A stretch of 61,621 nt of DNA, filler included, from Dirinaria sp. TL-2023a (lineage: Eukaryota), in assembly GCA_051941275.1 (NCBI GenBank). It is 5 parts of 5 records of this genome, joined end to end, with 100 filler letters (N's around TTAATTAATTAA, not from the genome) between each part and the next. Parts side by side here need not be neighbours in the genome. Positions count along the whole stretch, not along the records: positions 1 to 12,274 come from JAVEBF010000779.1; 4 more parts are not named here. One strand, 5' to 3'. A program made the position numbers and the translations under genes. Positions within the stretch are counted from its first letter, which is position 1; each line of letters opens with the position of its first letter. The notes under the pieces are model-generated. The model was given only the letters and a program-made list of their open reading frames with translations, had not been told where the DNA came from and did no database searches. Shown here piece by piece: positions 433 to 12,110 of the stretch.

Positions 433-3400
433 CTATTTTTGGTCTTTCTCAGGGTCACCCGCTGGAAGTGCTTCTTCAAGATGTCTCACGAGCCCGTTAA
501 GGAAATCCCTGTTCTTCCCCGACAACGTGCCGGCCGGTTCCAAGAAATCTGGTTGGAAGACTTTGTCAAGTTGCTGTCCGAACTTCGCAAGTTTTCTCTT
601 ATCAACATGACTGTCCGGGACCTTACTGTAGAGAAGTAACAGGAGCAGAAGTCGTTCAGCTTTCCGGACATTCAAGACAAAGAACTCATCGAGCTCAGGT
701 ACTGCCATGTTCTTCAGCTGGGATGAGTCTGGCAAGCCGCTAATGTCTAAACCTTTCCAAGCCCTCACTCTGATAGACTGGCGCTCGGTGTTGCGAGCAA
801 GTATTTGCGGTTTTAGATACGTTGCTGCTACCGACGGTGGCTTGTCGAGAATGTCCTCCGGCGAATGGGAAGAACGATCACAATAGCCGAATATCGACAC
901 CTTTACCTCGGGTGCTGGGTCGAAAATATCCTTCGCGGGCAAGCTCAAAAATTCGCAAGCCTCAGAGATTCCTCTTGGCTGTAGAAAGTACTTCTGGATC
1001 GCTATACGAAAAGCATAGAATTGCTCTTCTGAAGCTCCGGGTAAAGTCAATGTCCACACTGCAGCCATTGAAGCCTTTTCAGTGTATGATTCAATGAAAC
1101 CATGTCCCATGGCAGCGAAACATTTGTCGACATCGCCTCCCTCTAGCAAAGTTTTATTATCCGCACTAACTGTGAAAGGTGACTTAGAGGACAGATCTTG
1201 GCCCAAGTCTTCACTAGGCATAAGCTTTGCCTCCATCCGGATAGAATCCAGGATTCGTTTAGAAAATTCGTCCAACTGGTCCTTGGACGCTTCCTCGGTA
1301 CCTTGTTTGGTGTCTTGCCCCTGCTCTGGTTGACGCCAGGTGATCTTTTGACTCTTATCTTCGAAATATAGCTTCCAGGCACTAACGCGGAACCGGGCAA
1401 GTGACGAGTATTCAGTCACATTGATGAGATTGTCCAGAGAGGCTAGGAAGTCGTCTTTCGTGCTCTCTAAGCCGGAGAGCGCATTAGCCGTCCTCACAAC
1501 TTCGACGCATTTCTCTGGCGCTAATTGGTTTAACGTCCTGTAAGTCTTTCCAATCTGGTCTGCACCGGGAAAAGCCAAGTTGAGTCCCTTTTCAACTAAA
1601 TCAGAGCTCCATCGAAGAACTACGCTTATCGTGAAAGGTCGCAATGAGAGGTGATATAGGTGTTTTGGAATAGCCGACCAATTAACGCCAATGTTGATCG
1701 AGGATTCCATTTCTGATGAAACCTCGAGTCTGACAGCCTCCTGGGAATCAAGAACCTTCCATGATGCTCCACCTTTCGCAAGAGTCTTAGAGGACGTATC
1801 CGATCCCAATTTTGAAGCGAAGGGGTAATTCATGGGCTTCTCCACTGCAGTTATATTTAAGGCTGTACCAATTTCGGTCTTTTCGAGACCATTGCTCTGC
1901 ATTGAAGTCAATTTTTACTGCCTTTGAAAATACGAAGATGATCGTTCCGTACCTTGGGCTTCTCCTGCCCGGGCAACTGCGGCCTTGGACCAAGGTGTAT
2001 AATTTCCGGACTAAATAGCCCAGACGCGAGGATATCTTGAAAGAGACCTGGAACGTCATCGTAGCCTAGGAGACTCCCAATAAAGTCTTGTATCAGTTCA
2101 ACCTCGGCATTCTGCAGACAGTCAGTTTGATCGGGAGAATAAAGCAGTTAGCCTCCAAGGACCGGAGCGGCTCTAAAAAGCGATATACCTCAATGACTCT
2201 CCAATTCCTGTATTCCGATACGGTAGGAAGCCATTTAAAGGGGCTGATTGATCTCTGGTCAGCCCATCATTTCCGCAAAGTGGCTAAGCCAATGTGACGA
2301 CTGCCTGAGTTGGCATGCACGCTTGAGCAATGTCTCGGGTCATTATCTACTTACTCTGATACTAACGCCGCATTACCGCCATAAGCCGTCCAATCTATTT
2401 TGGTTTGGTCTGTCGTCGCGCTGCTCTCATCTTTTTTTTGGGTGCCATGTTCACCGGAGTAGCCGCCTTTGATGGAGAGAGAATCAATCCCTAAGGAGAC
2501 GGAAGCATGTTTCTTGATACCTTCCTGCCTCTCTGTGGTTTCTTCCACAGTCTCTGCATAAAAGAGTTTGGCGTTTATCAAACAACCACCAAGGACGACC
2601 TTTTTGGCGTAGACCGTGCCTAGGTTTCCATCAGGCTTTGCATAAGCTAGAACGGGCTTAGAGACGGACCATATTTGTCGAAGAACTCCATCAGATCACC
2701 GAATCTACGTTGATCTCGGAGTTTCACCAAGTGCTGACGGCAAGCATCAGATACTCTACAATTGCTCTTGTGTAAACTCAGTTCGACGATTGGGATCTAG
2801 GCTATATGTCAAATCATGCTTTGCGGTTTATGCGTAGTACGAACCTCATAGAAGGTCAACATTGTACTTCTCTTCCGCCCATATGTGCTTTCATCTTTGA
2901 AAGAATTCTCTGTACTACGCTCGTATTTGGCACCAAGAGAAAGCTTTTTGTATGATGCATCTCTGATGTCCAGTAAGTCAGTATGGCTGAAGCAAACGAT
3001 TGAATACGCATTCGTTCCACATCTACTTACAAGCCAACGTCAAAGGACTTCTTAGAATACCCACTCATCATAGCAGAAGTCTCAAATTCACTGTTGGTCT
3101 CTCGGATGTATGCTCTTGAGGGATTGCTCGCTAAAGTCCAAACAGGGATCTTCGCTCTCTCATCGTCCTGAGGCAGATTCACCTCAGCATCATCCTCATT
3201 CGAGTTTTTAAGCCGGAATGCTTCAAACTTTAGTGTGAATAAGGACGTCACAAAAACAGCATGGAACTCACCAGCATGTGAAGCTCTTTCCATTCGGTGC
3301 GTTGTGGCATTGACGAGCGAGCAGTGCAGTATCTTATTAGCTTGGAAGACATAGTCCCAGTCCTTCTCCTTCATCGGTCCTATCCTTGTTTGACTTAATT

Positions 3401-3883
3401 TGGGATTGACTACGTTAGATGAAGCCATACTTACAGGTTTTTCATATCATTTCCACCACTGACAGAACCTTTCAGTCCCTCGCTCTCGCCTTTCGGCGAC
3501 GATCCTGTCTTTACCCAAAAGATGGTCAGTAAGCCCGAAAATCCTGCTTTCGTAGCTACACGATAATCATCAAGGGTGAAATTGAAGACATCCTCGATGA
3601 CGCCTTTCTCTGGCAAGACGAAACGGCCATTTTCGCCACTGAAACCTACTCAGCCGGAACAGAGACTCCAAATAAGCAGCACTCACATTTTCCTTTGCAA
3701 CGCCACTAGAGGTACGTTCCACACGAGCACACGTTCCTTCTGGCGGAGGTTTTGCACGGCTTTGAAGTCAATGAATGTGCTGGCAACAGGCTTGGGTTCC
3801 TCATCCACGGCTGATCCCTCGATTTGCGTGAGCTTGAGGTCAAAAGGGATTGCGTAACGATTGGTGTTTCTACTTTGCTCCAT
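433..3883 (-). CDS. MACPF/perforin-like domain protein (~1000 aa, about 9 introns, no signal peptide) with long C-terminal extension
   Basis: Manual splicing (GT..CTRAC-like branch..AG introns) links ORFs 3683-3883, 3431-3616, 3027-3428, 2351-2581 and 433-1911. Exons at ~2585-2690 give LMEFFDKYG|TVYAKKVVLGGCL, matching the MACPF signature (Y/W)G(T/S)H(F/Y)x6GG with H>V. Downstream come IDWTAYGGNAAL and PFKWLPTVSEYRNWRVIE; upstream MKEKDWDYVFQANKILH...ERA is typical of fungal MACPF proteins. Confidence 0.8.
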
Positions 3884-11200: not shown

Positions 11201-12110
11201 AGAGGAAAAGGAGGAAGATCCGGACTTTGTGGGCTATACACTGGCACCGAAAATATCGGGCGGATGTCGGATGAATGTCGAGTGTAAAATCGAGCCGGCA
11301 TACCAGGATTACCCCAACATTACTCCAATGTACATCCGTGAAGGTAAGTTCCAATACCATCCACTGATGGTCTGATTTAATGAGTTTTCAGGTGCAATCA
11401 TTCCCAAGCTTAAGCCGCGCAGATACATACCAGATCGGACGGGTCATAATTTCGAGAAGCCAGATCAGCTGACTTTCCACATATATCCAGGAAAAGAGAA
11501 TGTCGGTGATCACATCTCACTGCCATACAGTGGAAATTACTGACTACTTCATCAATCAACAGGTTTATGACATGTACCTAGATGATGGCGTATCCAGAGA
11601 CAGCGCTCCAATTTCCTGCTTCTCCAAGACAAGCACTACGAATTCCAAGAGCAAAACTGCGCTTGTAGCAGACGAGGAGGCCAGAGGCCGCTACCGCCAA
11701 GTCCGAATCACGCAGGTAAGTCGAGGTCCATAACGAGATTCATCACATGTTCGCGTCTCTGACTTGACTAGGAAACGTTCCTTTCCGAGAAGGGTACTGA
11801 GACGCGCAAAGTGCACATCAAAACCGAATACGACGGCTATTCCAGCGATAACGTCAAACGAGACTTGGGAGAGCATTACTACGTCGTGCTCTGGCATGAG
11901 AGACCGGAAACTGTGGCGGGAGAAATCACGTGCACGGGTGCTCACCACTGTGAGATCGTACAGCGAGACGAAAGTATCAAAGCCGTTGTGCTTAAAGTAG
12001 CGATTGAGGCAAAGGACGAGAAGGTGGGGATCATTATTGAGCAACAGATTGGGAAACCTAAGCTTGGTTCTGGAACAGGATCGAAGAGCGACGATCCCGT
12101 TGCTGTATAA
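8288..12110 (+). CDS. Exo-alpha-1,4-glucan lyase (GH31, fungal lyase type), about 10 introns
   Basis: Motifs DAYNFVKAEDFF, QFVRPRVWR, YFGFGEQGG, GPLDSREPLYHSEPF, NYSQICIDLG, LKPRYALG, KCCTNITP, YPDLNRKEVRRWWGEQY, nucleophile motif GLEFVWQDMTSP, acid motif FAGLWTGDN, PELLIRWY, MYLDDGVSRDSAP. These match the Morchella-type fungal glucan lyase as I recall it rather than typical GH31 alpha-glucosidases (WIDMNE). No signal peptide. Confidence 0.92.

Follow-up and report, generated by a model that had tools for sequence, protein, structure and literature searches.

A divergent glucan lyase-AUDH gene pair and a neighboring MACPF gene on a contig of the lichen-forming fungus Dirinaria sp. TL-2023a

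When a gene for a putative pore-forming MACPF protein lies next to two genes of the anhydrofructose pathway, does it belong with them to one functional unit, or is it only their neighbor? The question is raised by a contig of the lichen-forming fungus Dirinaria sp. TL-2023a (assembly GCA_051941275.1). The window, by which we mean the whole stretch of 61,621 nucleotides that was analyzed, filler included, consists of five ~12.27-kb contigs joined by spacers of the form N44-TTAATTAATTAA-N44. Contig 1 (JAVEBF010000779.1, positions 1-12274) was filled by three genes, a lyase-type GH31 gene on the plus strand and an AUDH gene and a MACPF gene on the minus strand (Table 1). A preliminary description of the sequence had proposed that the three may form one wound- or attack-activated unit. 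Our analysis makes it likely that contig 1 instead holds two separate things, an anhydrofructose two-gene cassette and an independent MACPF neighbor.

The lyase and AUDH genes stand head to head, and the 527-bp spacer between their start codons is presumed to be a shared promoter. The MACPF gene lies downstream of AUDH on the same strand, with 1147 bp from the AUDH stop to the MACPF ATG, and the contig extends 432 and 164 bp outside the outer genes. The N-termini of all three proteins were without a hydrophobic stretch, the maximum 9-residue Kyte-Doolittle mean being 0.29-0.86 (a crude test and not a signal-peptide predictor). The preliminary description had given the same geometry, with the MACPF gene ~1.15 kb past AUDH, and had called the three genes intact, intron-rich and without signal peptides; the former is borne out by the coordinates, the latter by Pfam matches, open spliced frames and the N-terminal hydropathy.

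The lyase-AUDH pair was also observed in other genomes. Heterodermia aff. obscurata carries the two genes under consecutive locus tags (lyase Q9195_005161, AUDH Q9195_005162) on one 127,859-nt contig. A wider comparison set was made up of 80 loci that a lyase alignment matched in JGI metagenomes, with 647,558 nt of flanking sequence in total and 42 loci having at least 5 kb on one side. AUDH-like DNA was observed near the lyase-type GH31 in 13 of the 80 loci, prokaryote-type ones included. Split matches were found in 31 loci. In 18 of these the flank on one side reached 5 kb or more, and 5 of the 18 contained AUDH. The pairing is not universal, as AUDH was absent from the other 13 well-flanked split-match loci. 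In three fungal loci (L003, L069 and L080) the matches were split in an intron-like manner, and a full-length, intron-bearing AUDH lay upstream of the lyase and divergent from it, with starts 2.6-4.1 kb apart; most other AUDH-bearing loci showed uninterrupted open reading frames (ORFs).

Two of the prokaryote-type loci were annotated with Pfam. In one (L014, 7445-15766) an AUDH propeller gene, a gene for 238 aa and the GH31 gene are followed by a GDE_C-type gene, and the location of this debranching-type gene directly downstream of GH31 suggests a glycogen-to-anhydrofructose operon; in the other (L018, 70-5397) the GH31 gene and a complete AUDH are transcribed toward each other. Both place the same two enzyme families side by side, but in such bacterial loci the genes point the same way or toward each other, and the propeller and cupin parts of AUDH often have separate genes. 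In the window a single gene with introns encodes AUDH and is transcribed away from the lyase. As far as the comparative data go, lyase and AUDH form a conserved two-gene cassette whose adjacency has been kept across lineages. The earlier reading of these two genes as an anhydrofructose-to-microthecin pair holds, and the Heterodermia tags, the 13 AUDH-bearing loci and the three divergent fungal loci strengthen it.

No such recurrence was observed for the MACPF gene. A tblastn search with four full-length members of its family gave no match in any of the 80 lyase loci at E ≤ 1e-3, and a hidden Markov model (HMM) of the family's MACPF domain matched none of 10,403 ORF pieces from these loci at E ≤ 10; as a control, the HMM recovered the window's own six exon pieces, which were themselves part of the model. 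None of the three other fungal lyase-AUDH loci had a member of this MACPF family downstream of AUDH; at that position L069 and L080 had a protein kinase of fungal type together with a copia gag, and L003 had an FAD-linked oxidase. The species that could be named for the MACPF family, after looking up 20 of its 39 representatives plus the Lobaria protein P0001 (see below), were Lobaria immixta, Letrouitia subvulpina, Letrouitia leprolyta, Phlyctema vagabunda and Pseudovirgaria hyperparasitica, and all five were absent among the 120 lyase homologues listed (of 212) and the 3 AUDH homologues. Contig size, used as a proxy, gave no match between these 20 representatives (plus P0001) and the listed lyase or AUDH contigs, a comparison that is uninformative for the exon-sized calls from ENA/Logan. 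Because the pair recurs in other fungi and bacteria and the MACPF neighbor does not, the three-gene defense unit of the preliminary description is not supported: as far as tested, the adjacency was found at none of the lyase loci or other fungal pairs, and the family occurs in species without a listed lyase or AUDH. As a neighbor of AUDH, the MACPF gene is one observation in one lineage, with no statistical weight by itself.

Some further features of the fungal loci were recorded. L069 (1-4000) and L080 (1-4500) share the order protein kinase (Pkinase_fungal), AUDH, lyase, with the copia-type gag placed in L069, and the minus-strand ORFs in the 2.6 kb that separate the starts of their AUDH and lyase genes gave no Pfam match.

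The GH31 gene runs from an ATG at 8288 to a stop at 12108-12110. Pfam searches of its exon ORFs returned Gal_mutarotas_2 (PF13802), Glyco_hydro_31_2nd (PF01055; 1.2e-31 and 9e-29) and Glyco_hydro_31_3rd (PF21365), so that the three-domain architecture of GH31 (N-terminal, TIM-barrel and C-terminal) is present. The gene and the Heterodermia protein (P0005) are colinear over residues 1-1079, and every genomic insertion but one relative to that protein contained stop codons, as in introns. Greedy chaining of GT..AG introns gave one open frame of 1080 aa with 9 introns, in which 836 of 1079 residues were identical to the Heterodermia protein. RNA joints marked three introns (9126-9171, 10585-10631 and 10670-10715), the first of which disagrees with modeled intron 2, so the gene model may be inexact in places. 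The Morchella vulgaris alpha-1,4-glucan lyase entry (Q9UVZ1, P0096; GH31, EC 4.2.2.13) has the same domain set and was 51% identical in the catalytic segment and 41% over 667 aa. Three catalytic-site motifs, WQDMT.P, RNFI.GRG and G.D.GGF, were invariant across 15 aligned homologues and all present in the window, and WQDMT.P was common to the window lyase and all 23 sequences compared. Hydrolases typically carry a different motif. In a quick tree, built without a hydrolase outgroup, the window lyase stood beside Heterodermia inside a fungal clade with the Morchella enzyme. Family membership thus points to an alpha-1,4-glucan lyase, with a predicted elimination reaction that yields 1,5-anhydro-D-fructose.

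The AUDH gene (7760-5031) encodes the 768-aa database protein P0002, which is annotated as hypothetical, with 100% identity over the exons. Its minus-strand ORFs matched AUDH_Cupin (PF18637; 4.6e-39 and 6.7e-25) and AUDH_beta_propeller (PF22301; 2.8e-23 and 9.6e-15), and P0002, a homologue of P0003, aligned with residues 80-731 of the 900-residue chain of the solved Phanerochaete chrysosporium AUDH (4a7k; E 1.1e-94), covering the propeller and both cupins. The seven-bladed propeller and double cupin architecture is therefore present in the window gene, and the cupin stretch HNH...E.H is kept between the two proteins. As the window protein ends at the residue aligned with position 731, the lectin domain of ~170 residues found in the Phanerochaete enzyme is missing; the Heterodermia homologue ends at the same place, after the cupins, and likewise has no lectin domain. 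This domain is taken as non-catalytic. The database model itself omits ~19 residues (MHRLKAGFFTQRTFLEIIALP, window ~7090-6960, minus strand) that the window encodes and that are present in the Heterodermia and ENA homologues (P0003, P0004). A metagenome scan with the AUDH alignment matched 71 stretches, with no relative among them.

The cassette is new for lichen fungi, while the pathway to which it would belong is already known: an extract of PMC2974679 describes anhydrofructose as metabolized to microthecin and ascopyrones in fungi and red algae. Compared with the known enzymes, the window genes differ in their host, a lichen-forming fungus, and in forming a divergent pair. Our literature search found no report of the anhydrofructose pathway in lichen-forming fungi and no description of a divergent lyase-AUDH gene pair.

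The MACPF gene runs from an ATG at 3883 to a stop at 435-433 and has 10 exons in an open frame of 964-967 aa. Seven of its introns were backed by spliced minus-strand RNA contigs of a close relative. The other two, at 3434-3385 (or 3434-3394) and at 2188-2112, were placed solely by colinearity, with annotated homologues in both cases and with pleurotolysin B too for the 77-nt intron 2188-2112. Single exons gave no Pfam match; a colinear homologue, a 1037-aa protein of Lobaria immixta (P0001) that is 49% identical to the window product over 954 alignment columns, matched MACPF at 3.8e-12 and MACPF_1 at 1.1e-10, the MACPF match covering its residues 264-444. Two other family members (P0162 and P0165) also passed Pfam MACPF, and a profile of four full-length members matched pleurotolysin B at E 9.9e-8, making this the nearest solved structure to the N-terminal MACPF domain of the window protein. 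The protein carries KYGTVYAKKVVLGG and DWTAYGGN. The MACPF signature reads G-T-x-[FY]-x6-G-G plus a later W..GG, and in the window it is represented by YGTVYAKKVVLGG and DWTAYGGN, with V at the H position of the classical motif. Pore formation is a putative activity, predicted from the family. The C-terminal 487 aa had only 39 representatives at E ≤ 1e-3 in 1.84 billion proteins, compared with 212 homologues for the lyase. The protein is a member of a rare family that occurs mostly in lichen-forming ascomycetes.

The protein has no leader peptide, a feature it has in common with many fungal MACPF-like proteins. According to an extract of PMC7763983, such proteins often have no signal peptide and some are intracellular, so the trait that the preliminary description had called cytosolic is an ordinary one. 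The window contig departs from pleurotolysin/aegerolysin systems in having no aegerolysin gene, and where pleurotolysin B has a C-terminal beta-rich domain the window protein instead has the 487-aa region without a Pfam family.

Transcription was examined with one public RNA run labeled lichen metagenome (5% of sampled words), from which 13 assembled contigs were used; uncovered parts and depth differences were not used. The contigs were 90-99% identical to the window and therefore come from a relative. A 1712-nt contig with minus-strand joints runs from ~4560 to ~2514 and contains introns at ~4242-4193 and ~4432-4369, giving the MACPF transcript a spliced leader that reaches ~4560, less than 500 bp from the AUDH stop. 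A search of the spliced leader region 3884-4560 for a small partner, for example an aegerolysin gene, found no ORF of note. Within the leader of the relative, a 71-nt stretch (4068-4138) is replaced by 33 other letters. The introns 3434-3385 and 2188-2112, which are needed for the full frame, were unspliced in the relative's contigs while the seven others were spliced. Because the homologues are contiguous across both junctions, as is pleurotolysin B at the 77-nt intron, we interpret the two unspliced introns as retained or as belonging to pre-mRNA. If the 77-nt intron stayed in, translation would stop directly behind the first MACPF domain.

Table 1. Features of contig 1, with positions counted along the whole window
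Feature	Position	Strand	Basis and remarks
Alpha-1,4-glucan lyase-type GH31 gene	8288-12110	+	~10 exons, 1080 aa; Pfam, homologue colinearity, RNA joints
Spacer between the divergent AUDH and lyase start codons	7761-8287 (527 bp)	.	Starts placed by tblastn of P0002/P0003 and P0005
AUDH gene, propeller and cupin domains, no lectin domain	5031-7760	-	Pfam; encodes P0002; 4a7k match
Spliced non-coding 5' leader of the MACPF transcript	3884-4560 (upper end approximate)	-	RNA contig of a relative
MACPF gene, exons 1-9, N-terminal region plus canonical MACPF domain	1953-3883	-	RNA joints, P0001 colinearity
MACPF gene, last exon, 487-aa C-terminal region without a Pfam family	433-1896	-	Predicted MACPF/CDC-like with inserted four-helix bundle

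The other four contigs (12375-61621) held ordinary fungal genes (Kelch, WD40, acyl-CoA dehydrogenase, CYK3-like SH3/transglutaminase, CAF1, NOC3 and KRE9) that are unrelated to the finding.

Several observations weigh against treating the MACPF gene as an independent neighbor. Its adjacency to AUDH exists, in a tight tandem, and the leader narrows the gap between them. The Heterodermia pair, known from two locus tags alone, has a flank that is the decisive comparison; beyond it there were only three other fungal lyase-AUDH loci, of which L069 and L080 have the same arrangement and are possibly closely related and L003 has only 2.5 kb beyond AUDH. Our MACPF searches were family-specific and proceeded exon by exon, and a different MACPF family could be missed. 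Since 120 of the 212 lyase matches were listed, the search worked by shared words within a length window and the metagenome-assembled genomes are incomplete, the absence of a lyase in MACPF-bearing species is suggestive only. The RNA contigs of the relative's lichen sample cover all three genes, so co-expression is possible, but the depth of assembled contigs can neither rank or correlate genes nor show co-regulation. The tight tandem and the RNA coverage of all three genes would fit a defense unit activated by damage or attack, at least in Caliciales, in which permeabilization by the MACPF protein is coupled to conversion of glycogen to microthecin or the pore delivers the compound. The anhydrofructose pathway is reported to switch on after plasmolysis or freeze-thaw, which belongs to the general background of this idea. 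Counted in favor of the unit were the reported activity of microthecin against bacteria at 100-200 ppm (an extract of PMC13765081, which also gives it as inactive against yeasts and moulds), a proposal that broken fungal cells release aegerolysin partners of MACPF-like proteins against predators (an extract of PMC7763983), and a literature search that found nothing linking fungal MACPF proteins with this pathway. Given the empty counts at the lyase loci and at the other fungal pairs, and a MACPF family spread over species without a listed lyase or AUDH, we regard such a unit as unlikely, and a coupling restricted to this lineage as about as doubtful; the MACPF adjacency is most likely incidental.

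Two other explanations concern the chemistry and the assembly. The pair could be real with a different chemistry, the GH31 protein acting as a hydrolase or transglycosylase, or AUDH acting on glucosone from a pyranose oxidase (the cortalcerone route). A 336-aa catalytic piece of the window protein did match a bacterial alpha-glucosidase (3nuk, 1.8e-28) better than a red-algal lyase (2x2h, 1.3e-21), several sources label the homologues as alpha-glucosidase, and the Phanerochaete AUDH also acts on glucosone. The grouping with the Morchella enzyme, in a tree that had no hydrolase outgroup, and the WQDMT.P motif in all sequences compared argue for a lyase, the pairing of GH31 with AUDH across fungi and prokaryote-type contigs fits a substrate-product relation, and no pyranose oxidase was found on contig 1, which together make a different chemistry quite improbable. 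The AUDH-MACPF junction could, in turn, be a misassembly of two organisms or loci, given that contig 1, at only 12.3 kb, is part of a metagenome-assembled genome. GC content is even along the contig (0.46-0.52), all three genes have their closest homologues in lichen-forming fungi, and the relative's RNA gave depth in every bin over 821-5740, the AUDH-MACPF spacer included, in a table that is silent on whether one contig bridges that spacer. A misassembled junction is, on this evidence, highly improbable.

The C-terminal half of the MACPF protein raises a question of its own. No Pfam family was found in this half in the window protein or 36 relatives, an hhalign comparison of the N-terminal MACPF domain with the C-terminal domain gave a probability of 0.2% and no sequence similarity, and a profile of the C-terminal domain searched against PDB sequences returned nothing relevant (best E 0.036, a helical hypothetical protein). 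An AlphaFold model built from 20 sequences had a predicted local distance difference test score (pLDDT) of 83.2 and a predicted template modeling score (pTM) of 0.69. Foldseek gave this model no match at E ≤ 1e-3, and the top 17 rows listed were all MACPF/CDC proteins, including Plu-MACPF (E 1.2e-3, probability 0.99), GNIP1Aa, TgPLP1, stonustoxin, pleurotolysin B, perforin and pneumolysin. When a distant family member was modeled from another alignment (pLDDT 75.2), MACPF/CDC chains again stood at the top, mixed with low-probability TolC-like rows, and language-model neighbors of this half also pointed to MACPF/CDC with weak scores. The structural scores are in a range that the tools call middling, and on balance we lean toward a second, very divergent MACPF/CDC-like domain. 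With such a fold and an inserted FAT-like four-helix bundle predicted in this half, the protein may be a single-chain double perforin.

A chain of this kind would be a covalent version of the stonustoxin alpha/beta pair. Compared with that heterodimer (4wvm) and with two-component CDC-like proteins, the window protein would put both MACPF-type domains in one chain, with no detectable sequence similarity. A literature search on tandem MACPF domains in one chain found no paper on them, and only papers on C8 and venoms surfaced. The two ideas can be combined: a gene whose product joins a pleurotolysin B-like MACPF domain to another one, of MACPF/CDC type and bearing a FAT-like bundle, would have been recruited directly behind the cassette in Caliciales, where cell breakage would arm both a pore former and an antibacterial pyrone. 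We hold this combination to be quite improbable because of the functional coupling that it includes.

For the cassette with an independent neighbor, which we prefer, the proposed scheme would be as follows. The GH31 alpha-1,4-glucan lyase would release 1,5-anhydro-D-fructose from glycogen or starch, and the lectin-less AUDH would dehydrate and isomerize this product through ascopyrone M to microthecin, as predicted from the families of the two enzymes. The two genes are probably co-regulated from their shared spacer. The leaderless, ~965-aa pleurotolysin B-related protein would stand apart from this chemistry, its position after AUDH most likely reflecting local synteny of the lineage.

A coupling to the MACPF gene would have been the surprise here, and it is unsupported. 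The MACPF protein is worth a separate look as a member of a rare family that is expressed in lichen thalli, and because one half of this protein may conceal a second perforin-like domain. Should the pair work as we read it, lichen fungi can convert storage glucan to 1,5-anhydrofructose and microthecin from a compact two-gene cassette of a kind that cluster finders based on backbone genes do not flag, and the same pairing in fungi and prokaryote-type contigs offers a usable genomic marker for a little-studied route.

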